From: Raja brachyura
Taxonomy: Eukaryota
Reading direction: 5' to 3'
Assembly: GCA_963514005.1 (NCBI GenBank)
Contig: OY740821.1
Location: 12,462,001 to 12,526,000 of the forward strand
DNA length: 64,000 nucleotides
Program-made: the position numbers and the translations under genes
Shown: positions 2,431-62,575 of the stretch, in pieces
How positions within the stretch are numbered: the first letter of the stretch is position 1
Layout of the letters: each line of letters starts with the position of its first letter
Notes under the pieces: model-generated
What the model saw: only the letters and a program-made list of their open reading frames with translations
Told to the model about the DNA's origin: nothing
Database searches by the model: none

Positions 2431-2540
2431 GTGGGTCCATGCAATTTGTGAAAATCTTTTCACCGAAGAGGAAGTAGAGCAAGCGGCAGACGAGGGCTTT
2501 GATTGTACTGCATGTGAGCCATTTGTTGTCCGTCCGATTG
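2431..2540 (+). CDS. KMT2D: KMT2D exon (ex17 equivalent), PHD6 end: WVHAICENLFTEEEVEQAADEGFDCTACEPFVVRPI
   Basis: ttgcag|G TGG...G|gtgagt; 110 nt. Confidence 0.95.
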
Positions 2541-2937
2541 GTGAGTGTCAGTGTTGGCCACTTTCAGTGCTTGGAATGTAGTGACAATCCTTTACTTAAT
2601 TTGGAGATAAGAACCCGATTGCAATTCTAAAATTATTTTTTAATGTTTTTGTGCAACTTTGTTTCACTCTTCAACTTCATGACAAAAATAGTGAGTTGCC
2701 TTATTTTGCAGATGATGAAAACCTGTACACTGGATATTACACCACAACATTCTTCATGTTTATCTTTTAAGGATTTCATGTTGTTTCTTGAAACGCATTT
2801 TAATGTAGTGTTAAAGTTCTTGTTGCTTTATTGGGCGAGTCTCCAAGCTAATCGAACTATTGACATGTGCGTGCTATTTCTAGTTTTTAGTTTTTGATAT
2901 TTGGCATGAGGGTTCCTAGTTTCATTTGTATTTACAG

Positions 2938-2988
2938 TTCGAAGTGAATCCCCTGTGATTACACCTATCATCAAAGTGAAGGATCCAG
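2938..2988 (+). CDS. KMT2D: KMT2D short exon (ex18 equivalent): (V)RSESPVITPIIKVKDP
   Basis: ttacag|TT...CCA G|gtgagc; 51 nt, phase 1-1; KVKDPE resembles human KVKEPE. Confidence 0.88.
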
Positions 2989-3082
2989 GTGAGCATCTAT
3001 TTTGTTTGAAGAGGTTATGTTCACACTGTTTGATTCTTTTATTATGCTAAATTTATCGTAGACTTGATATATTCGTTTGTAG

Positions 3083-3295: not shown

Positions 3296-4186
3296 GTGAG
3301 ATAGAGATTGTATAGTCACCATGAAAACTGTGTTGTTCCATAATGTTAAACCTCTTTTCGCAGATTTTTATTTCTAAAACTTGTAATCTAGTGCAATCTT
3401 AGAAATTGGGATTTCTCTTTCGAATTGAGCTTTTCCAATTGTCAACAAAATCTCTACTGAGGTATTGAGCTAACTTTTTTTAAAAAACCAAAGTATTAAG
3501 ATGACATTTGCATGAAGAAAGCTGCACTTTCATCCCCCACCCCCCCCCATTGTTGACAGAACACGGGGTTACAACAGATATGTGGTTAAATCACTGCTTT
3601 TCTGGAACAAAGATTCAGAGGAATGCTGAATTGTGCCTTTAAAACGGTTGCGATGTGAAGCTGTTTTTCCATTTTTTGAGCATAGACTGGAAACTAATTG
3701 GAAACCCTTGCATACTATGGTTCATTCTGGAAGTTAGATCCATTGACTATTTCAGATGGCAGAAACCAAATTCGTCTTGCAGCTTCACACCTCCAGACAC
3801 ACATATCAACTCTGAATCCTCCCTTTTGGGAGAAGCTGAGGCCAAGTAAAAAAAAACTCCTGAAACCATTCACAGACAAACAAGAAAATGAGTGGGTAAA
3901 TGTAACCAAATTGTGAAATATGTAGATCGAAAAAATATTTATTTTCGTTATCACTTATTTTGAACATTCGACAATTGAAGAACTGACGGGAGAAAAATAG
4001 TAAAACCCTTTGCATGTAGTGGATGTAGATGAGAACTATACAGATTGAAGTCTTTTGCAATGATTTTATAGAGTTAGGAGAAAAATTCAATGGAGGTGCT
4101 TGTCTGTGCTAACTCCCATGGTAAATTTTATTTATTTATTTATGTGACTGAATGTAATTTGCGGTTGGGTTGTAATTCTTTTAAAG

Positions 4187-4330
4187 TTGCCATGGAGCCA
4201 GGAGAATGTGACATAAAGCCTGATGCACCTGTCTGCCAGGAACATGACATGTGTGCAGTCAACAATCCTGGAAAAATAAGTGAGGAATCTGAGGAAGGGA
4301 AAAAGAGGAAGAGGAAGCCATACCGACCTG
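4187..4330 (+). CDS. KMT2D: KMT2D exon (ex20 equivalent) ending KKRKRKPYRPG (basic, NLS-like)
   Basis: ttaaag|TT...G|gtaagt; 144 nt. Confidence 0.92.
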
Positions 4331-7549: not shown

Positions 7550-8375
7550 CGGTTGCATCGCTGTTGAGTGGGTCTTCCGAAGTGCATTAGTGCAAAATTA
7601 GGCTAGATGCATTGGCGCCAATTTGGACTGTGCAGTTTGAATATGTGCAAAATTGGCTTGTGGGGTTTGCATTGGCGCAAAATTGGGCTGAGTGGTTAGA
7701 TTTACGCAAATCTAGGCCGAGCGGTTGTAATGACAAAATTGGCTGAGTAGTGGCATTGGCACAAAACTGAGTCTGAGCGATTGTATTGGCGCAAAACTGC
7801 TTCATAGTGGTTGCATTGATGCAAAATTACATCCGAGCAGTTGCATTTGGCGCAAAACTGCATCTTAGCAGTTGCATTGATGTAAAATTACATCCAAGCA
7901 GTTGCATTTGGCGCAAGACTCCATCTTAGCAGTTGCATTGATACAAAATTGCATCCGAGCAGTTGCATTGGCGCAAAACTGCATCTTAGCGGCTGCATCG
8001 GCGCAAAAATTGCACCTGAAGTGTTGCATTGACGCAAAACTGCGTATGAGCGGTTGCATTAGCGCAAAACTGCGTCTGAGCTGTTGCATTGGCGCAAAAC
8101 TGCGTCTGAGCTATGCATTGTTGGGAAACTGGGTCTGAGTGGTTGCATTGGTGCGAAACAGAATCTGAGCTTACATTGGCGTGAAGCATGGGCTAAAGGG
8201 TTGCATTGGCACGAAGCAGAGTCTGAAGGGTTGCATTGGCGCAAAAGCAAGTCTGAACGGCTGCATTAGCGCAAAACCAAGTTCCAGTGGCTGCATTGGC
8301 ATAGAATGGTGTCTAGGCCAGTTACGTCGGCGTGGTGTGGGGGCAGTACTTGTTGCATTGGCGCAAACTGAGTGT
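7550..8375. repeat. Intronic minisatellite, ~30-bp unit (consensus approx. GCAGTTGCATTGGCGCAAAACTGCATCTGA), about 25 degenerate copies
   Basis: Recurring TTGCATTGGCGCAAAA every ~30 bp; repetitive ORF translations (QFCANATAQT). Confidence 0.92.
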
Positions 8376-36075: not shown

Positions 36076-36501
36076 GTGTTCATTTTCCTATGTGCATCGT
36101 AATTCAGCATTATCCAAACACTACATTTTATCCAAAGGAATTGTAGCATATGTTGTGCAGCCAGCAAGCAGTGCGATCTGGTATTTGATCTTGAAAGGAG
36201 TTGTGGGACACGTACTGATGGCATAATTGCTGAGCATTGGCTCGGCTGAGTTCTGGTTTCAAAGGTTTGCTGACATCGCATTTTCATTGAATGCATTTCT
36301 CTATATATTGATGATCCTGGGGACTACAATATTAAATAATATTTTGTGCCAGTGGTCACTTGCATATTTTAAAGACTTTATTTCCTCACCTACCCCTCCA
36401 GCATATCAAATTACCCCCATTTGAAAAGCGGCCTTAAAAGAGGGCCCTAAGTACTGCTGCCTTTCATTACTTGTATCTACCATAAATGTTTTATTTTCCA
36501 G

Positions 36502-38885
36502 GCAACCAGGGGTTGGTAACCCGCAAGGATTCCACCCGAGAGGCAAACCAGCTAATCAACAGCAACAGTGGCAGCAGCAGTTAATACAAAGGCTTCCTGG
36601 GCAGACCCGTTTCCAGCAACCTGAATCTTTGCATGTGAACAGGCCTGGAATGACAATGCAAATGAACAGCACAGCTGGGCTTAACCCTAGAATTGCCACT
36701 CAAATCACTTTTCAAAATGCACAACAGCAAATTGTAGCTTCTCCAATTCCGGTGAGTCCTCAGTATATAGAACTGAGGCACAATTCCCAACGATTACCCA
36801 TTGGTACCCAACTGGTACAGCGTGGTCCCCAGCCAAGACCACGCCTTCCATTACCAAATCAAGAAATTGGTTCATTTGTGCATCAAATGCAGGGGTGCAA
36901 GGTCATATCAAGAGGTCCAAGTACACCTTTGCCACAGTCACCAGTTGGGATAACGCTCTTACCCCAGCAGAATATTTCTGCTCCATTGCCATCTTCACCT
37001 CATTCGGTGGAAGTATCAAGTGCCCATCAGCACATCCAGACAAAAGATCCATTGGCATCTACAGTACAGGGTGAAGCACAACAGACATTTCAGACTAGTT
37101 CATCGACTACAACGTCCACTTCAAGTTGCAGCACTGACGCCTTGAAGGATAACACGGTACCTTTTCCACTTAACTCTGTCTCATCCATCTCCAGTGTAGT
37201 CAGACAGCACACCGAGTTAGATCCTCGGAAGATCTCTTGCGATGATTCTGTTGTAAAAGCTTTGGATGAAGAACTTGATTCACCAAAAGAGCTGGATGAA
37301 GAAGATGACCTTGCCAATTTGAGTCTTGACCCAGACAGTAAGACAGATGATGAACTTGGTAACCTTGATAATCTAGAAACCAATGATCCCCACCTCGATG
37401 ACCTTCTGAAATGCGAGGAATTTGATCTGTTAGCTTATACTGACCCCGAGCTAGACACTGGTGACAAAAAGGACATATTTACCGAACAACTGCGTTTAGT
37501 AGAATCTGCAAATGAGAAAGCAGAAGAAAATCAGGATATCCTAGCGGATCAGGATGCTGTTGGCCCAGCTGGTGAATGTACAACTGATAATATCAGCCGC
37601 TCTGACACAGAAAAGACTGCGAAGGAAGAAGAGAATGAAAAAGCAAAAACTAAATCTGATATTGCAGATACTCTATCCACTTCTGATAGGATTACTTGTG
37701 AGTCGGTGAATAATGTCAACTCTGAAACGATCACTAACAGTCAATGCAGTGATCCAACCACTAGGGCTCCGTCTACTGATAATTCTCCAAAGCCTACTCT
37801 TGACTTGGTATTGAAGGTTGAAGAGAATGTTTCCCAAAATTCAGCTTGCCAGTTTGTTGCAAATACTTCGACGGCTCAGACCGTTCTGATAAAACCGGAA
37901 AGCCCACCGAAGGGGGACGATGAGAGGGGAGCCGTGTCAATGCTACTCAATCTGGGTACTGGACTTAACGTCAACACAAGTGTAGCACTGTGTCAGAGTT
38001 CTACATGTACTACCAGTGGAACACAGACATCTACTCAAAGTGGTACGGTTGTTTCAGGTAGTCATGGGACTCCACGGATGCCTAACAATGAGCATTCTAA
38101 TATGGATTTAGAAAGTGTTCCGTGCACATCTTCAACCCAGATAATTTCCAAGTTGCCACTGGTCGTCCAGTCTCGGCCATCATTGGCTAAATTTGGACTT
38201 GATGAAATGTGTCAACATGTGCCCAGTATGGAACCGAAACGCCGGTCTGTGGATGACCTTGTCAAAGTGGAGAGCTCTTTGGAGGCAAGTGAACTTCCAC
38301 TACTTCTCCATGATTTACTTGAACAAGAGAAAATGGAACTGCAGCAGCAGCAGCAGCAGCAGCAGTTGGGAGGATCGCAGTGTATATCTGCTCAACAGCA
38401 GCAGCATTCAGGACCAAAGGCCCACCTTCCAGTTCTGCATCAGCAGCAACAGCTTGAGGTTTCACATCAGCCGACTCATCCAGGGCTCTCCCAACATCTT
38501 CCAACATCACAGCAGTCGCAGCATCTTGAGGGGCCACCTCAGAATTTAAACCTGCCACAGCCACATATCCTAGGGGTGATACAGCATCATCAGTTGGGGA
38601 TCCCAAGATCCCTTGCATCTTCACAGCAGCAACAATTGACAGCATCACAGCAGCGCCTTGGAGCCTCACCACATGTAGCCATGCCCCAACAGCAGCAGCA
38701 TGTGGCAACAGGGCAACATCCAACACAGCAGATAGTGGCCTCACAGCAGAGTCAACATTTGACCTCACCGCAGTTATTGCCAGCTCAGCAGTTGGCTGTA
38801 TCGCAAATGGGCATCATGCAGCAGACGCAGCAAGTTGTGATGCAACAGCAGCAACAGTTAGCCAATGCTTTCTTCCCAGATACAG
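36502..38885 (+). CDS. KMT2D: KMT2D large exon (ex34 equivalent): QYIELRHN, NLETNDPHLDDLL, EFDLLAYTDPELDTGDKKDIF, polyQ, ending FFPDT
   Basis: ttccag|G CAA...ACA G|gtacag; 2,384 nt; contains most of ORF 36629..38917. Confidence 0.96.
38342..38365 (+). repeat. Coding (CAG)8 polyglutamine tract
   Basis: Pure CAG x8 encoding ELQQQQQQQQLG. Confidence 0.95.
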
Positions 38886-38994
38886 GTACAGTAGGTAATG
38901 AGCAAGCTTACAAATAATGTCGGCTTCCTTCTGGTTGGCCGTTAATGGCGGCTGCACTGAATTAGCAATAGAAATGTCAAGCTCTGGTCTTCAT

Positions 38995-42999: not shown

Positions 43000-43622
43000 A
43001 AACATAGATATTAGGTGCAGGAGTAGGCCATTCGGCCCTTCGAGCCTGCACCGCCATTCAATATGATCATGGCTGATCATCCAACTCAGTATCCTGTACC
43101 TGCCTTCTCTCCATGCCCTCTGATCCCCTTAGCCACAAGGGCCACATCTAACTCCCTCTTAAATATAGCCAATGAACTGGCCTCAACTCCCCCCTGTGGC
43201 AGAGAGTTCCAAAGACCCACCACTCTCTGTGTGAAAAAAGTCCTTCTCATCTCGGTCCTAAAGGATTTCCCCCTTATCCTTAAGTTGTGACCCCTTGTCC
43301 TGGACCTCCCCAACATCGGGAACAATCTTCCTGCATCTAGCCTGTCCAACCCCTTAAGAATTTTGTAAGTTTCTGTAAGATCCCCTCTCAATCTCCTAAA
43401 TTCTAGAGAGTATAAACTGAGTATGCAGTCTTTGTTCATAAGACAGTCCTGACATCCCAGGAATCAGTCTGGTGAACCTTCTCTGCACTCTATGGCAATA
43501 ATTTCCTTCCTCAGATTTGGAGACCAGAACTGCACGCAATACTCCAGGTGTGGTCTCACCAAGACCCTATACAACTGAAGTAGAACCTCCCTGCTCCTAT
43601 ACTCAAATCCTTTTGCTATGAA
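43000..43622 (-). mobile_element. Young CR1 LINE, 5'-truncated, nested in the Tc1 left TIR
   Basis: ORFs [19 protein letters not shown] and LYSLEFRRLRGDL...FFTQRVVGLWNSLP. Confidence 0.94.
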
Positions 43623-43723
43623 GGACTTGCTACATAGTTCCCCCCCCCCCCCCCCCCCCCCAAATTTCAGAGCACCATAATGTTTGTGATACAGCAATGT
43701 CATGTAAATGAAAGTAGTCATAT

Positions 43724-44703
43724 TTAGTATTTTGTTGCATATCCTTTGCATGCAATGACTGCTTGAAGTCTGTGATTCATGGACATCACCAGTTGCTGGG
43801 TGTCTTTTCTGGTGATGCTCTGCCAGGCCTATATTGCAGCCATTGTTAGCTTATGCTTGTTTTGGGGGCTAGTCCCCTTCAGTTTTCTCTTCAGCATATC
43901 AAAGGCATGCTCAATTGGGATCAGATTGGGTGATTTACTTGGCCAATCAAGAATTGACCATTTTTTAGCTTTGAAAAACTCCTCTGTTGCTTTATTTGAG
44001 GCATTTGTCTGAGGTTGAGCAGATAGGATGTGTCTATACACTTCAGAATTCATTATGCTACTACCATCAGCAGTTGTATCATCAATGAAGATAAGTGAGC
44101 CAGTACCTTCAGCAGCCATACATGCCCAGGCGATAACACCCCCACCATCGTGTTTCACAAATGAGGTGGTGTGCTTTGGATCTTGGGCAGTTCCTTCTCT
44201 CCTCCATACTTTGCTCTTGCCGTCACTCTGATATAAGTTCATCTTTGTCTCATCTGTCCACGACCTTTTTCCAGAACTGTGGTTGCTCTTTTAAGTATTT
44301 ATTGGCAAACTGTATCTAGGCCATCCTATTTTTGCAGCTAGCCATTCGTTTGCATATTGCAGTGTAGCCTCTGTATTTCTGTTCATGAAGTCTTCTGCGG
44401 ACAGTGGTCATTGACAAATCCACACCCGACTTCTGAAGAGTTTCCGATCTGTCGGGCAGGTGTTTGGGGATTTTTCTTTATTATAGAGAGCATTCTTGTG
44501 TCATCGGCTGTGGAGGTCTTCCTTGGCCTGCCAGTCTCATTGCGATTAGTAACCTCACCAGTGCTCTCTTTCTTCTCAATGAGGTTCCAAGCAGTTGATT
44601 TTGGTAAGCCCAATGTTCGGCTGATGTTTCTAACAGTATTATTCTTGTTTCTCACTCGCATAATGGCTTCTTTGACTTTCATTGGCACAACTTTGGTCCT
44701 CAT
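43724..44703 (-). pseudogene. Tc1 transposase pseudogene (frameshifted, segment with the second catalytic Asp deleted)
   Basis: Paired-like HTH with GRPRKT; WTDETKMNL; KHDGGGVIAWAC; WPSKSPNLIPIEH; C-terminal GYATKY*; the usual QQDNDPKH block is missing. Confidence 0.9.
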
Positions 44704-45182
44704 TTTGATAAACAGCAATAAAAGTTTCCAAAGATGATGGAACGACTGGAGGAAAGATTAGGTGCTGAGAGTTCTCTTATACCTGCATTAAGGAGGCACT
44801 TAGACCTGAGCAATTACAAATACCTGTGAAGCAAGATGTCCCAAACATTATGGTGCCCTGAAATGGGGGGACTAAGTATAAACACAGCGGTAATTTCTAC
44901 ATGGTGAAACCAAAAAGTTTAAAAACAGCCTAAAATAAAATCTGACAGTGTGCACTTTAACCACATGTGATTTTTTTCTATTACAAATCTCAAAGTGTGG
45001 AGGCAAATAAATAAATGATGGGTCTTTGTCCCAAACATTATGGATGGCACTGTAAATGATATACTGGAAAGACATTTGTTAGCCTGGGGGATTCCCTATA
45101 TTGTGCAATATTCTTGTTTGAAATCAGCCTGACAAGATGTGGAGAATGAGGAAAGGAGGTCTCCGGGAATGAGATGGACTTG

Positions 45183-54253: not shown

Positions 54254-55876
54254 TTATATCAGCTAAATGATATTGTTGGTGACAAGAGAATGAGTCTTTG
54301 TTCGAGCACAAATACACTTGCCCAACATTTTGTGAGTTAAGCTGACAACCAGATTTAAACTCAATGGGGAAACATGCCTGTAACTGTCTACATTGTGCAT
54401 TATACTTTCAGGTACACTAAACATTTGTTTGAAACATCCTCATGCTTCAGGGTGGCGGGAGAAAAATGTGCAAGGGTCAAAATTGCAACCAGCTTTTAAA
54501 ACTGCCTATCTGTTGTGATTGGACCGCCACCAAGCCTTACTAGATAAATCTTAGATAAAGATAAAACTAGATACATTTGTTGCCATGGATCACTCCCCAA
54601 ATCTGTGTGAATTGTTTCTTTATGACCAGGCAAGCCTGCAAAGTTAAACTTTCTGGACATCGTAAGAATGGTAACAGCCCTAAACTGGAAAAAATCTGCA
54701 GGCTTGCAATGGACGAATTGACCCAATCGGATTTGTTGATTTTGTGTCATAATTCTGTTCTATGTCCACTCAGTGATTTTCCAGCTTGAAGAGAGTTCAA
54801 GTCGGATGTTATTTTAATGAGAATCCTGCAAATGTCTGGCAAAGCTGTAATTTTTGCTTGTCGGAATGGGCCGTGATTTGTCAAGTGTCTTTTTCTCAGT
54901 GAATTATTATCTTCTGGGAAGAATGTGATCTCTCACATTCTAGGAAATTCACTTTGATCTGGAGCAAAATTCCCAGTTATAATGGTTTGTGAATCTTAAT
55001 TTCCAAACGTCTGCTGTCACACTAGATTGGCAAGTTGCCTTTTACTATTTGAGCTTGTATTCACATCCACCACCAGAGAATGGAAAGACAACCTCTTCCC
55101 TTTTGTCTAATAGTCCTTTATGGGGAGCCTCAAGCTGTTGGGGGAAAAAAACTGCAGAGGGAAATGGACACATGATAAATTAGCACGTTACTATTTTTCT
55201 TCCAAGATCAAAGTTGTAGAAATGTGAAACACGAAAAGTGCTGAAAAAGTCTTCCAGGATAAAGCAGAATATATGATGAGAGAAACAGTTTGGATGATGG
55301 ATCATTATTTTGAAATGTTACCTTTTTTCATGTCCACGTGCCACCTGGTGCACGAGACTGCTACCAGCATTTTCTATTTAAATTTCTGATTTGTAGGTTT
55401 ATAGATTCAGATGTGCTTTAATCAGCTAGTCAGGTTGCGGAGACTAGTCAGAGTTATTTTTTTCACCACAAAAAATAAGATGCGCAGATGCATTGTGAAG
55501 ATGAAAACAAAATTGTATCTGATATACTGGCAGTATTCTTCTTCAGGCATTGATTTCCTGCATTCAAAAGTACATGATATTCTTTTTAAAAAAGCTCCTT
55601 GCCCTTTTGACATTCCAGTTTTATCAGAGGGAAATGGATCCATTATTATATTTGCATAAGGGAATGTTATTTTTGAATTGTTAACAATATTCAACTTTAT
55701 TTTTAGAAGCTGTTGGCAAAATACCTAACAGAATGTATTTGTTCTTCCATCATTTATCGGTGCTGAATTTAACATCTTGTGCAATAGCTTTCAGGCAACT
55801 GTTAGCAAGGGAAGTAGACACCGAATGATTAGGACTTGCACGTTGTCTAATTATACATTTGGTTCTTGTGCTGTAG

Positions 55877-56109
55877 ATGAGGCAGAGCACCGGCAGTATG
55901 AAGAATGGCTGCTGCACACTCAACAGCTGCTTCAGATGCAGCTGAAATTTTTAGAAGAGCAGATTGGTGTCCACAGAAAGTCGAGAAAAGCATTATGTGC
56001 CAAACAACGGACGGCCAAGAAAGCGGGACGCGAGTTCCCCGAGGCAGATGCAGAGAAACTTAAACGAGTTACAGAGCAACAAAGTAAAATCCAGAAACAA
56101 CTTGATCAG
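55877..56109 (+). CDS. KMT2D: KMT2D exon (ex38 equivalent), conserved coiled coil: NEAEHRQYEEWLLHTQQLLQMQLK...IQKQLDQ
   Basis: ctgtag|AT...CAG|gtacgg; 233 nt. Confidence 0.97.
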
Positions 56110-56778
56110 GTACGGTTTGATGATGAGAGAGTTGACTTAGTCCAGTATCTTCCTTTCTTACCTTGATTTAACAATATGTTTTGCTCAGTAGTTGCTGCAT
56201 GTAATATTGTAAATGCATTAACAGGCATGTGAAAGTTGTTGGTTCCATCTATCTTCCCATCCAATTCATCACCACCTTTATGATGAGACAACCATACATG
56301 CTTAAAGGCATGTTTGGCTACTGTTGCGGTGCCTAAGTATTTTTGAAGCCCTTCAGTATTCTTTCCTTGTATGGAACAGGCATATATTGAAAAATGTACT
56401 TCACACCTTTGTGAAATCAATTTTGTCTCGAGTTCCATTTTTTATTCTCTGAAGCTATAAATCCCTGCTTAAAGTTCCACAGAAACGGGTACATATCTTC
56501 AACCTGTCATCTTAACATGAACATTTCTCTTAATAGAACGGTTTCCCTAATTAGAAAAAAAATTGCCAGCGTTTTGTGGAATGAGCTCTGTCAATGCTGA
56601 AAGTAAACTTTAATTATTATATTTACATCCTCGAAGTATGTACATTTGGTTGGAAAATGAATTGCTCCCATTGAAATTTGTGTTAAATTATTGCTTGTGC
56701 TGATTAAGTGGCTTATTATAAAATTGTCCCTTTTTTTTAACAAAGGTATTTCAAGTTTTTCTAAAAATTGTGTTTCAG

Positions 56779-59700
56779 GTCCGCAAACAGCAAAAGGAAC
56801 ATACAAATCTTATGACAGAATATCGGAATAAACAGCAGCAGAAATGCTCCTTATCTCCCTCGGGGGTGATCGGGACAGCCACATCCCAGAATCCTCGCGT
56901 AATGCCTAAGCTTGCAACACCCATGTTATCGGCAGCACTAGCCCAGCAAGGAGGATCAATCCTTGGACCCCAAGCATTATCGCAACAACCAAATACACTA
57001 ATAGGACACACTGGAAATATACGACTGCCACTTCAACAAGGACCAACTTTCTTAACCTCAGCTGTGACCCAACAGCAAGAATATTCTTCTGCCTCAGCAA
57101 CTGTATCTTCTGCCGCTCCAACGAGCTTTTTTCCTGGAAATTCTGCTGCTCAGACACTTGCGAATGAAAACAGACTCATGCAAGAGAGACACCTTCAGCT
57201 GCAAAGAATGCAGCTTGTTCAACAGCAAGGACTCGTTGGGCCAACTCAGCAACAAAGCATCATGGGGAAATTACAACAACAAAATATCATTGGACAGCTT
57301 CAACCGACGACTCAGCAAAATATTGTCGTCAACAAACCAATATTGACGCAGCAGGCTCTCATGGGCCAACAGCAACAAGGCTTCATTGGACAACAGCAAG
57401 GGATTATTGTCCAATCACAACACCAGCCAGGTCAGCAGCAACTGCCCCAGCCGCACATCGGCCAGGGGCAGCAGCAACCAGGAGCACCGCACCAACAGAG
57501 TCTAGCACCTCAACAGCAGCACCTACGGTTGATGAGTCAACAGCATATGTCTCCAATTGGTCAGCAGCAAGGCCTCCTCCTACATCAGCAATCCCATCAA
57601 CAGGGACTTGCCAATCAACCTAAACCTCCAAGGCCTCAGCAAGGTCTCATGGCACAGCAGTTGGCACATCAGCAAGGTCTTGCGGGTCAACAGCAAGTCC
57701 TTGCTTCTCAACAACAGCAACAGAGTCTAGTTTTACAGCAACAGACATCCAATGCTGTTTTGCAACAGCAAGGACTCATAGGACCTCAACAAGTGAATGT
57801 TTCTCAGAGTCAACAGCTGCCGACAATGACTCCATTGCAACAACATCACCTTCAAGCAGTGTCAGGACAGCTTCACCCACAAAGTGTTATCAGGCAAAAC
57901 AACATCCTTCGGCTGTCCACCCCTTTGCAAGGCCAGCAGCAAAGTACAATGGTTCATCATGCCCGAATGCAGGGTATAATGAGGCAGCAATCGCAAGATG
58001 CTTTGGGACAACACTTAGCATCGCAAGGTATAATTGGACAGCAGACTCCATTGCACGTCCTCAGGCACCAGCTGCCTGGTATAATGGGGCAGGGACAGCA
58101 GCAGCATCAATCCCAAGGCATGGTCACACAGAACATAAGGCAGCAGCATCAGCCCCTCGTATCAATGGAACAAGGACTGCAATCCCAGCCTCAGGGTGCA
58201 ATGACCCAGGGTCAGCATCATCAGACCCAGAGCACAATTGGACAGGGACAGGAGCATCTGCCCCTCACTGCAGTGGGAATGGGCCAGCAGGCACAGCCAC
58301 AACCACCACCCCCAGAGCCCCACGTAACAATGGGGCAGGGAATGGCACAGCAACCTCCCCCAGCCCAGAACATGATTGGGCAACAACAACTGCCACCATC
58401 CCAATCCCATGGGAATATAGGTCAGCAAACACCATCCCAAGCACAGGGTACAATCGGGCAGGGAATGGGACAACCGCTCCAGTGCCAGGCCACCGTGAGA
58501 CAACAGCCCTCGGCCCAGGGCATCGGCGGGCAACAGCCCCAGACTCTGCGCATGGGCACTGTGGGACTACAGCCCCAGTCCATGGGGACTGTGGGACAAC
58601 AGCACCAGACCCAGGCCACCACGGGACTGGGTGCTGGCGGGCAACAGGCCCAGGGCATGGTGGGACAACAGTCCCCAACCCAGGGCACGGTGGGACAACA
58701 AGCCCAGACCCAGGGCACATCGGGTCAACAGGCGCAGGGTAGCGCAGGACAACAGGCCCAGACCCAGGGAACAGTAGCACAACAGGCGCTGACCCAGGAC
58801 ACGGCAGCTCAACGTGCCCAAAGTACCGCAGGTCAACAGGCCCAGCCCCAGGGCACTGTGGGTCAACAGGCCCAGGGCACAGTAGGACAACAGGCCCTGA
58901 CCCAGGACACAGCGGCTCAACAGACCCAGACCCGGGACATTAGAGGTCAACGTGCCCTGGGCACAGCCGGACAGCAGCCCCCGGCCCAGGGCACTGCGGG
59001 ACAACAGGCTCAGACCCAGGACATGGCTGAACAACAGGCTCAGGACACGGCCGAACAACAGGCCCAGACCCAGGGCGATGCAGGACAACAGACCCAGGGC
59101 AGAGCAGTTCAACAACCCCAGACCCAGGGCACTGAGGCTCCACAACCCCTGTCTCGGGGCACAGCGGGTCCACAGCCCCAGTCCATGGGCACCAGCGGAC
59201 TACAGCCCCAGTCCCAAGGCACTGCGACTCAACCACACCAGATCCTGGGTCCCGGCAAACAACAGCCCCAAACCCTAGGCCCCCGCATACAACAGCCCCA
59301 GTCCATGGGCACCACGACTCAACAGCACGAGACCCAAGGCACCGACGGCCAACAGCCCCAGTCACTGGGCACCGTGACTCAACAGCCCTCTACCCAAACC
59401 ACTGACAGAGAACACACATCCTCGCAGGGCACCAGCGAGCAAGAGCCCCCGTCCCTGGCTACTGACGAACAACAGCCCTCGTCACTGGACACTGCGACTC
59501 AACAGCCACCGACCCAAGGCAATAATGGAGAACACTCCTCATCGCAAGGCACCGATGGCCAACGGCCCCCATCGCAGGGCACCGACAGACAACAGCCCCC
59601 ATTGCTTGGCACCGACGGACAACAGCCACCATCTCAGGGCACCGGACAACAGCCCCAAACCCTGGGCACCGATGGGCAACACCCCCAGACCCAGGGCACC

Positions 59701-62340
59701 AGTGGACAACAGCCCCAGATACAAGGACAACAGTCCCCATCCATGGGCACCGGCAGACAACAGCCTTTGGACAATGACAGACAGCAGACCACATCACAGG
59801 GCAGCAGTGGACAACAGGGTCAGGGCTCTGATGGACAACAGCACCTGTCCCAGGGCACTGTGGGCCAATGGCCGCAGGTCACTGACGTACAACAGCCCCA
59901 GACTCCGGGCACTGACGGGCAACACCCCCAGTCCCAGGGTGCCATGATGCAACATCCCCAGTTCCAGGGCACCGGGGGTCAGCATCCCCAGAGCCCCACA
60001 GTACAACATTCCCAGTCCCTGGGAGCCATGGTACCACAGTCCCTGGGCATGGGTGGACAACATCCCCAGTCCCTGGGCGCCATGGTACAACATCCCCAGT
60101 CCCTGGGCACTGGTGGGCAACATTCCCAGTCCCTGGGCACCGGTGGGCAACATCCCCAGACCCAGGGTGCCATGGTGCAACATCCACAGAGCCAGGGAGC
60201 CATGGTACAACATACCCAGTCTCTGGGTGCCATGGTACAACACTCCCAGGCACACAGCGCCATGGTACAACATCTCCAGACCCACGGCTCCATGGTACCA
60301 CATCCCCAGACCCTGGGCGCCACAGGACAACAGCCTCATCAGGGCCCTTTAGGGCACGGAGTAGTACAGCAGCAGTCATCCCAGGGAGCTGTGGGAATGG
60401 GCCAGCAGCCTCAGGGGCTCGGTCTGGCAGGAGTTGGACAACAGCAAACGCTATCTCCTGGTATAATTGGAGTGGCACAACAGCAGCTCCAAATTCAGAG
60501 TACAATGGGGGTAGCACAACAGCAACCCCACGGCACAATTGGGATGGGACAATCTCAATCTCAAGCCCCAATGGGGCAGGCAAAGCAACAGCAGCAGCCC
60601 CAATGTTTGATTGGGATAAGGCATGGGCAACAGCAGCAACTACTCCATGGCCTGATGGGACAATGGCAATTGCAGACACAAGGTGTAGCCAGACAAGGAC
60701 AACTACAGAACCTGTCTGGTCAAGAACAGCTATCCCAGACTATGGTGAACCAAGAGCAAGGACAGCAGCAACTGCGCTCACAGAGCATATTTGGGCAAAG
60801 TCAAGGACAGCTGCAACTGCAGAGCTTTATGGCACAGAGGCAGTCTCCAGGTACAATGGGGCAAGGACAGCGGTTTCAGAGTTTAGGTACAATTGGTGGA
60901 GAGCAGCAAGAGCAACAACAAGAGCAGCCGCCTCCAGGTACACTGAGTCAGGGACTGCAACGAGCCCAAATTGCAATGGAGCAAGATTCATTGCTGCCTC
61001 CCCAGTGTGTAATGGGACAGGACCGTAACCAGCCACAGATTCAGAACATGCCTAAGAGCGCAGTAGGGCTGGGACAGTCTCCGGGTATGATGTATCAGAA
61101 TCTGCAAACACGATCAGTGATATCAGTGCAACAAGCAATGCAACAAGGTGTCGCAGGGCAGCAGAGATCAATTGCTCATCAAAATCAATTAATGAGACGT
61201 GTACACCCATCTGTTACAAATCTCCAACAGAATAATGGTCTCGGTTTGCAAGGAGTCGTGCGTGTGGCGACATCTCAGCAGCATGGGACAGTGGGAGATC
61301 CAAGGCAGGGAATGCAAAGCATCATGACTTCACAGTCATTTCAACAGCAGCATCAAGGCCTACGTCCAGTTCAAGTGACCAGTCAACAGATGGGTTTGGG
61401 TCCTCTTCGTCCAGGCATGGTTTATGTGCAGCAAATTAAAGCTGAACATGGAGGGAAACCTCAAGAGATGGCCCATCTAATTCAAAACAAACAAGCAAGG
61501 CAGAACACAGGGTCAACAAATGAATTGGTAACTGCCCAAGCTCATTGCAATCGTTCTCAAAGCCTCCATCCTGAGGTAAACAAAAACAATTCGGGAGATG
61601 TGTCTCTACAAAATGAAACTTTGGAAACAATAGTACAGTCACAATCAGAAGTACTCAAAAGCCACGAATCTGAAGAAAGTACTCATTGTATGGCAAACCC
61701 TATTGGGATAATACATCAGAAGATATTGGATTCTAAATCTGATGCATCGGCAATGAAGCCACACGGCACTGGCGAAAAGGCAAATTCTGTCACTGAGTCA
61801 CAAACTAGAATTAATATGGAGGCGCATGAGCAAAGCGAGTTGACTAAAGCTTGCACATTCGACTTCCCAGTATCCCCCCAAAATCAAGTCACAAAGGAGG
61901 AATACCCTGGACTGCGAGCAGAATCATCGCTGTTGAATCAAACGAATGGGCAAGAGGAATGTGTACACAAAGTCGTGGGAAGACAGGATAGCTGTTCCAA
62001 CTTACAGGATGGTACTGTTAAAGGTCCCAACACCACAAGTGCAGGTCACTTAGTGAAACAGGAAAACATTGAGGCAATTCGCTGTGGGTATTCTGAGGGA
62101 ACCTTAAAACATGAGTTAAATACTGACTCCTTCAATGCCTTGAATGTAGGGGACCAGTCCTTCCTTGCCCCCAGATCTGAAGCTGGACAACTGCTTCTGC
62201 AGAAACTGTTGCGCACTAAGAACTTGCAGCTTGTGGCACAGCGCTCCGGTGATGGAACACACTTAGCTATAAAAGGACACATTGAAAGCAAAGCCGTGAT
62301 GATAGATCGGAAACTTCAAGGTGCAGCTGGAAATCCAGAG
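56779..62340 (+). CDS. KMT2D: KMT2D giant exon (ex39 equivalent), 5,562 nt / 1,854 codons, Q-rich prion-like region with internal repeat array
   Basis: tttcag|GTC CGC AAA (VRKQQKEHTNLM)...LLQKLLRTKN...GAG|gttagt; lies within ORF 56770..62370. Confidence 0.95.
58480..60330 (+). repeat. Coding minisatellite, mostly 30-bp (10-codon) units: QGTVGQQAQT, QGTDGQQPPS, LGAMVQHPQS
   Basis: Recurring CAGGGCAC..GGACAACAG..CCCAG at ~30-bp spacing, with some 24-bp units. Confidence 0.92.
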
Positions 62341-62384
62341 GTTAGTTTACAATTGTGCCAGCAAAGTTGAAAATCGAGAAAAGT

Positions 62385-62575
62385 ACAGGCACTGGAAATC
62401 TAAAATAAAAAAGTAAATGCAGGGAATATTCAGCAAGTCAGGCTGCATCTATAGGGAGAGAAACGTAGAGTTAATGTTTTGGGTCACGACCTATTGCCAG
62501 AATTCAGGAGAGTGTACTTTGCGTTTCTTCTCCCACGGATGGGGCCTGACCTGTTGAGTATTTTCAGCGATTCCT
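62385..62575. mobile_element. Old degenerate Penelope-type hairpin element (similar relics near 13790-13910, 17785-17870, 29690-29800, 50900-51060, 55230-55380)
   Basis: AATATTCAGCAAGTCAGGCTGCATCTATAGGGAGAGAAAC ... TTCTCCCACGGAT..CCTGACCTGTTGAGTATT. Confidence 0.6.

Follow-up and report, generated by a model that had tools for sequence, protein, structure and literature searches.

What does a long in-frame tandem repeat do in the middle of a nuclear enzyme, and does a glutamine-rich region need a particular sequence or only length and composition? The question is raised by a window of 64,000 nucleotides (nt) from Raja brachyura, the whole stretch of DNA analysed here, in which a large exon of KMT2D carries an array of 63 short coding units (all coordinates below are positions in this window, on its forward strand, unless another contig or protein is named). 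KMT2D is a Kabuki-syndrome and cancer gene, and its glutamine-rich (Q-rich) region drives condensates in human cells (PMC13584762; bioRxiv 10.1101/2025.02.27.640591). Our analysis indicates that the array is probably an in-frame coding minisatellite, likely born of slippage and unequal exchange, which is predicted to lengthen the disordered, condensate-forming region of KMT2D by ~600 residues. By itself, the array is an ordinary coding minisatellite; the interest lies in its recurrence in other forms across vertebrates. A single exon presents a natural series of polyglutamine (polyQ) plus 7-, 10/8-, 11-, 13- and 14-residue arrays, in segments of 780 to 2,070 residues, and this vertebrate series allows a direct test of sequence versus length in a disease gene. 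Coding minisatellites in disordered regions and variation of glutamine repeats in KMT2D were known beforehand; full-text searches of the literature outside subscription journals and bioRxiv supplements turned up neither this array nor the recurrence of arrays in the exon. The features concerned are the following.

55873..56109, + strand: preceding conserved KMT2D exon; its start is approximate, being the first base matched by spliced contigs.
56779..62340, + strand: glutamine-rich KMT2D exon of 5,562 nt, which reads through 1,854 codons in phase 0 without a stop and is bounded by AG...GT.
58501..60327, + strand: coding minisatellite of 63 units, mostly of 10 codons and twelve of 8 codons; 609 amino acids (aa).
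58501..58641, + strand: four irregular lead-in units of 10, 12, 10 and 15 codons, from the unit segmentation.
58642..59109, + strand: block 1, 10-codon and 8-codon units in alternation, 17 in all, e.g. QQAQTQGTVA at 58750.
59110..59919, + strand: block 2, 28 units, acidic, Pro-rich and the most diverged.
59920..60327, + strand: block 3, 14 His/Met-rich units, e.g. QHPQSLGAMV at 60058.
60325..60405, + strand: conserved single-copy landmark of 27 residues, corresponding to bamboo shark residues 2429-2455.

Segmented on its Gln pair, the array comprises 47 units of 30 nt, 12 of 24 nt and single units of 21, 27, 36 and 45 nt. All these lengths are multiples of three and the whole array lies in a single stop-free frame, in agreement with an earlier note on this DNA, which had described about 60 in-frame units of mostly 30 bp, some of 24 bp, without a frameshift. 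Identity at a lag of 30 nt was 0.595, versus 0.297 ± 0.011 (maximum 0.338) in 500 codon shuffles. Tandem Repeats Finder returned 30-nt arrays together with periods of 24, 54, 84, 90, 120 and 138 nt between 58466 and 60332, and higher-order copies of 84, 108, 138 and 222 nt recur inside the array. The array occurs at one place only in the 2.7-Gb assembly. Because its longest exact repeat is 23 nt and a single gap-free contig spans it in a related species (species D), it is not an assembly artefact, and the assembly expansion against which the earlier note had cautioned was rejected. The 609 residues are of polar low complexity (Gln 27%, Gly 15%, Thr 12%, Pro 8%, Ser 8% and Ala 7%, which together make 78%), with 0.4% aromatic residues.

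The proposed course of events is as follows. The 10-codon unit may derive from an older Gly/Gln motif of the exon and may have multiplied in bursts that each added one or several units (54, 84, 120 and 138 nt), with replication slippage plus unequal exchange as the likely route of growth. The blocks would then be a record of separate bursts and not of a moving front. In 12 of 12 units of 24 nt, the six absent bases begin at unit position 5-13, a region that reads as two similar hexamers in tandem. Slippage at these hexamers might be the source of the 24-nt units, so that the 8-codon variant would be the full unit minus one hexamer. Selection would hold the frame and a polar composition rich in Gln and Gly, and the exact wording less so. 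Judged from its composition, the array is predicted to be a disordered extension, in which blocks 1 and 2 could serve as a mostly soluble polar spacer and the His/Met patch of block 3 could add weak contact sites. It may thereby shift the ease with which KMT2D clusters at enhancers. The same exon would be a slippage hotspot, with other arrays in other vertebrate lineages.

The array is part of an exon. Its open frame runs for 1,882 codons from stop to stop. The preceding exon is 93% identical to bamboo shark KMT2D and is followed by a donor GT at 56110. Contigs of all four runs, which come from four studies of related species, join this exon to position 56779; they leave out the 669-nt intron, which has zero cover, at a GT..AG joint, and cover the array. 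In run X12 (species D), one contig extends over 56775-62344 without a gap and differs by 66 substitutions. These spliced contigs of related species support the claim that the array is transcribed as exon. A processed DNA copy could mimic such a joint, and none was seen in searches of this genome. An intronic repeat that is open by chance was rejected in view of the splice joint, the exon-only cover and the silent excess described below.

The host gene is KMT2D and the array is coding, as the earlier note had proposed. The KMT2D proteins of gar and bamboo shark (Chiloscyllium punctatum, P0001) gave collinear tblastn matches that extend across the window and, within 21 kb beyond it, up to the FYR and SET exons at the C-terminus. 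PHD fingers lie upstream and ePHD-FYRN-FYRC-SET downstream, in collinear exons (tblastn; Pfam domains of the shark protein), and outside the repeats the exons of the window are 64-100% identical to the shark protein, exon by exon. In a search with the anchor region, the gene names among the best 120 of 632 matches were all KMT2D, with the others hypothetical or unnamed and KMT2C absent. Elsewhere in the genome, the preceding exon has a single further match, at 79% identity; it lies on contig C2, in a locus that we take to be KMT2C from its resemblance. The exon following it there (about 113199877-113201694, - strand) encodes ~560 residues with 10.7% Gln and no periodicity.

The bamboo shark offers the closest comparison. 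Its KMT2D contains a 13-residue array at 2455-3044 (~590 residues), in which 36 of 46 segmented pieces are 13 long, e.g. QQQAQPQGAVGMG. This array lies in the same exon at an adjoining site, and resembles the window's array in its Gln/Gly wording and its size (~590 vs 609 aa). However, it is a near-uniform 13-mer, Met-rich (6.9%) and almost uncharged (D+E 1.3%), and it lies on the opposite side of the 27-residue landmark. The landmark (20 of 25 residues identical; its score is 103, and the second-best site reaches 41) follows the array in the window but precedes it in the shark. With both arrays removed, the flanks align (174 of 329 columns); a global alignment is uninformative, because it lays one array on the other. 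After the landmark, the window holds few degenerate units of 12-13 residues. Because the two arrays flank opposite sides of one landmark, they appear to have arisen separately at adjacent sites, and this order disfavours a single ancestral array that was reworded by turnover. Their similar size could be explained by coincidence, since only two species are involved.

Arrays were also found in many other vertebrates. At a periodicity threshold of 5.42, which lies above all 232 local shuffles, 46 of the 115 orthologues with both anchors passed, as did the window, four of them only marginally. Among those passing were 22 of 22 named birds, with 11-residue units such as GVMGQASMQQP, the sea turtles (14-residue unit), the softshell turtle, 2 of 2 tarpons (7-residue unit, detected as 14), 6 of 11 frogs, 2 of 2 caecilians and the bamboo shark (13-residue unit). 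Two of the passing amphibian-like records hold frameshift-like stretches, and some of the frog calls may be inflated. Both mammals, the gar, the alligator, the newt and the remaining teleosts fell below 5.42 in this segment. At a stricter threshold of 6, an array was present inside the segment in 42 of 115 orthologues and outside it in 23 of 115, and arrays covered 8.7% of segment residues versus 1.2% of residues elsewhere. The two mammals examined have no array in this exon, as the earlier note had supposed for mammals, but the array is not unique to this lineage.

A high glutamine content is common to all the arrays observed in this exon. Those of birds (11 residues), sea turtles (14), tarpons (7) and frogs and caecilians (8-13) are, like the window's array, in frame and between the same two anchors. 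They differ from it in their units and are shorter (about 100-440 aa by scan span); those of birds, turtles and tarpons lie near the start of the segment, and those of amphibians in its second half. The two largest arrays of the panel are those of the two cartilaginous fishes, whose segments measure 1758 and 1805 aa, as compared to 791-841 aa in mammals, 782-997 aa in most teleosts, 810-1012 aa in birds and 1550-2073 aa in frogs. Compared with shuffles, a hydrophobic-Gly-Gln motif is enriched in the window (29 vs 9.5) and likewise in shark, gar, bird and caecilian; pika shows no such enrichment. Our results suggest that an old seed motif of Gly and Gln was amplified by separate lineages.

Among close relatives of Raja brachyura the array varies in length. 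Relative to the window, species E shows changes of +9, -54, -33 and -60 nt (net -138), and species F, over 59000-62344, shows +30, -60, -12, +114 and +12 nt (net +84, from piece coordinates), all in frame. Species C has one 84-nt higher-order unit and 3 nt fewer, a loss that is read from a contig loop and assumes that a shared 38-nt node is traversed twice. Species B apparently keeps the window's length, and species D shows no length difference. All 11 listed differences in species C, E and F are divisible by three; seven are unit-sized at 24-84 nt and one is +114 nt, and unit gains and losses are located in all three blocks. Since a 30-nt unit yields in-frame indels by itself, this was not used as a probability argument. 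An intronic 30-bp minisatellite of the same gene (7583-8353), unrelated in sequence to the coding array, served as control; some of its ~25 units are 28 or 31 nt long, and it has stops in six of six frames.

These whole-unit gains and losses between species are consistent with local expansion of the array. The earlier note had also suggested that the array is length-polymorphic. This is true between species (C, E and F), but variation within a species was absent from the one usable pair, both from species C: the samples agree in structure and are set apart by a single listed base, with the 38-nt node collapsed. Run X13, which is labelled as the window's species, shows -6 and -54 nt on 58504-59926. 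It contains two contigs with 0 differences from the window and two that are ~4% different; the sample looks mixed, and the run was set aside as evidence of a length allele.

The array is under weak purifying selection, with a ratio of replacement to silent changes per site (pN/pS) of about 0.3. Between species D and the window, the array has 9 replacement changes for 847 sites and 11 silent ones for 278 sites, which gives a pN/pS of 0.27 (binomial p 0.004), or 0.35 (p 0.017) if a five-fold transition bias is assumed. The 5' flank has 4 replacement and 12 silent changes (pN/pS about 0.10). Replacement and silent changes number 10:12 in species B and 10:9 in species C; these counts share many changes with species D and hence are not independent, and that of species C covers 40 of 49 rows, minus 8 rows beside the joint (58984-59018).

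What a longer segment could mean for the protein is known best from human KMT2D/MLL4. Its prion-like domain (3561-4270, with polyQ at 3898-3974) forms condensates in cells, which weaken under mechanical load upon loss of the polyQ or a Leu-to-Ala change, and the polyQ was modelled to turn β-structured under load (PMC13584762). In the human IDRome, KMT2D ranks first, PAXIP1 second and NCOA6 tenth for the longest cumulative Q patches (bioRxiv 10.1101/2025.02.27.640591). Two further sources report that in primates the polyQ tracts of KMT2D and PAXIP1 vary in length together (PMC8121095), and that mouse Kmt2d has a coding variable number tandem repeat with a 6-nt QQ unit in 15-18 copies among strains (PMC12903361). 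The mouse repeat is likewise a length-variable, Gln-coding repeat in KMT2D, but it is a 6-nt microsatellite, in contrast to the 30-nt minisatellite of the window. By its two anchors, the window's segment (Q 24.5%) is the same Q-rich exon segment of the same gene as the human prion-like domain. In contrast to the human polyQ, however, its longest Gln run is 5 residues, as in the bamboo shark, and its glutamines lie within a 10/8-residue minisatellite. The segment measures about 1,800 aa, versus 791-841 aa in the two mammals.

Several points weigh against interpreting the array as an extension of the condensate-forming region. Condensate formation was shown for the human region only, so that a role of the array in condensates would be by analogy. 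A mid-exon landmark of bony vertebrates scores 4.5 bits in the window and 4.2 in the shark, against a top score of 6.2 in 200 shuffles. These scores fall within the shuffle range, so that, with respect to the human polyQ, the array may be placed at the very end of the prion-like domain or beyond it. The spliced-contig runs come from related species, none from the window's own, and are RNA by guess only. The orthologue panel, as the best 120 of 632 matches, is rich in birds and teleosts and contains one other cartilaginous fish; the 115 of these 120 that have both anchors include kin that are not independent, and birds weigh heavily. The selection test comprises 20 changes in one species pair, and its counts come from the part of the exon up to 59606, with 36 of the 66 substitutions. 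The ratio in the array does not differ significantly from that in the 5' flank (Fisher p 0.30), and the ratio between units, 0.45-0.56 inside blocks and 0.63 for the whole array, is close to relaxed.

An alternative explanation might be tolerated drift: a permissive disordered exon would carry the array as near-neutral filler, its length would make no difference, and selection would act only against frameshifts, stops and sticky residues. Drift would agree with the length differences of -138 to about +84 nt among close relatives, the span of 782-2073 aa in segment length across vertebrates, the unit-to-unit pN/pS of 0.45-0.63, and the presence of a second array-prone site, a Pro/Glu linker, in KMT2D of birds and mammals, with 23 of 115 orthologues having an array outside the segment. 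Yet, there is a silent excess between species (p 0.004-0.017), species D retained the exact length over 5.6 kb at a divergence of about 1.2%, two separate expansions are both near 600 aa, and every array in this exon is Q-rich. On balance, we consider drift unlikely. It is likewise doubtful that the length or valence of the exon has a set-point under selection, which lineages would reach by their own tandem repeats, with minisatellites as alternatives to the mammalian polyQ.

A third explanation was put forward in the earlier note, which combined directional, involucrin-like growth with functional block modules, adaptation to urea and trimethylamine N-oxide (TMAO), and within-species polymorphism. 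The composition of the array does reveal three chemically distinct blocks. Block 1 has 17% Ala, no His and higher-order periods of 54, 84, 138 and 222 nt; block 2 has 20 D/E versus 8 K/R (net -12) and 12% Pro; block 3 has 15 His, 7% Met and zero charged residues. The hydrophobic share is 8-9% in blocks 1-2 and 20% in block 3. A graded progression along the array was not found, however, because unit identity shows no trend with distance within blocks (Spearman -0.003, 0.01 and -0.05; p 0.48, 0.53 and 0.33); the weak overall trend among the 47 30-mers (Spearman -0.17, p 0.0008) stems from the blocks. Neighbouring units are not the most alike either, since the best match is the adjacent unit in only 9 of 47 30-mers and mean identity is 0.68 at distances of 1, 2, 3 and 4 units alike (0.62-0.63 beyond 10 units). 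Within blocks, unit identity is 0.74, 0.63 and 0.75, respectively, the value for block 2 being barely above that between blocks (0.61-0.63).

Involucrin repeats have a 10-codon unit and grow vectorially. The KMT2D array is also 10-codon, Gln-rich, coding and lineage-specific, but it lacks a one-way age gradient and a Pfam match, and KMT2D is a nuclear enzyme whereas involucrin is a protein of the cornified envelope. Directional growth is unsupported: the middle block (0.63) is less uniform than either end block (0.74-0.75), gains and losses occur in all blocks, and there is no trend within any block, which is not the one-way age gradient that the addition of units at one end, as in involucrin, would leave. 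The long segments (1758 and 1805 aa) and the two largest arrays of the panel in both cartilaginous fishes would fit an adaptation to urea/TMAO. However, birds, turtles, tarpons, caecilians and frogs also have arrays, and such a link is not singled out because frogs have segments as long or longer (1550-2073 aa). In addition, the shark array is a near-uniform 13-mer of other chemistry, and the two samples of species C are alike in structure. Overall, we find this third explanation very unlikely. Two further suggestions fared no better: as to regular Thr/Ser modification sites, S/T-Q motifs occur at chance (33 vs 32.3 ± 4.3 in shuffles), such that patterned S/T-Q kinase sites were rejected, and a glutenin-like segment is not indicated, with 0 Pfam families at E<=0.1 for the array and for the whole exon and so few aromatic residues. 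Finally, a regular fold of the repeats (solenoid, polyproline-II bundle or cross-β fibre) in place of disorder would suit the regular period, the near-fixed Gln and Gly columns and the β-structure modelled for the human polyQ under load (PMC13584762), but it is most improbable given the mixture of 7-, 8-, 9- and 10-residue units, Pro+Gly of 17-26%, the low hydrophobic share of blocks 1-2, unit lengths that vary freely among lineages, and the lack of a Pfam match.

Several smaller observations concern KMT2D as a whole. Amphibian Q-rich segments (newt, frogs) are the longest of the panel, with 1,250-2,070 residues and up to 766 Gln, often without a clean period. The second array-prone site, the Pro/Glu linker after the first PHD fingers (residues about 330-960), has 9-residue units in both mammals (pika and sengi), 10-11-residue units in birds and other units in tarpon and salmon. 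In the window, another large Q-rich KMT2D exon lies upstream at 36425-38914, with a CAG run of 8 at 38341-38365 and no minisatellite.

We also considered co-expansion of partner proteins, which was rejected because the KMT2C-like exon and a PAXIP1-like Q exon (Q 45%) have no periodic array. The latter is an open frame on contig C2 (about 115583254-115583871, - strand) of plain polyQ without a period, ~70 kb upstream of a BRCT-domain match and ~2.3 Mb from the KMT2C-like locus, and is presumably the Q exon of PAXIP1. Retroelement-like open frames (reverse transcriptase-like) occur in the introns of this PAXIP1-like gene. In the window itself, an intron holds pieces in several broken frames at 43089-44757 on the - strand; we take 43089-43850 to be the end of a CR1/L2-type long interspersed nuclear element and 43832-44757 to be a Tc1/mariner-type transposase, from their resemblance. 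Right after the Q-rich exon, at 62368-62486, lies a short repeated element to which numerous unrelated contigs of each of the four runs matched.

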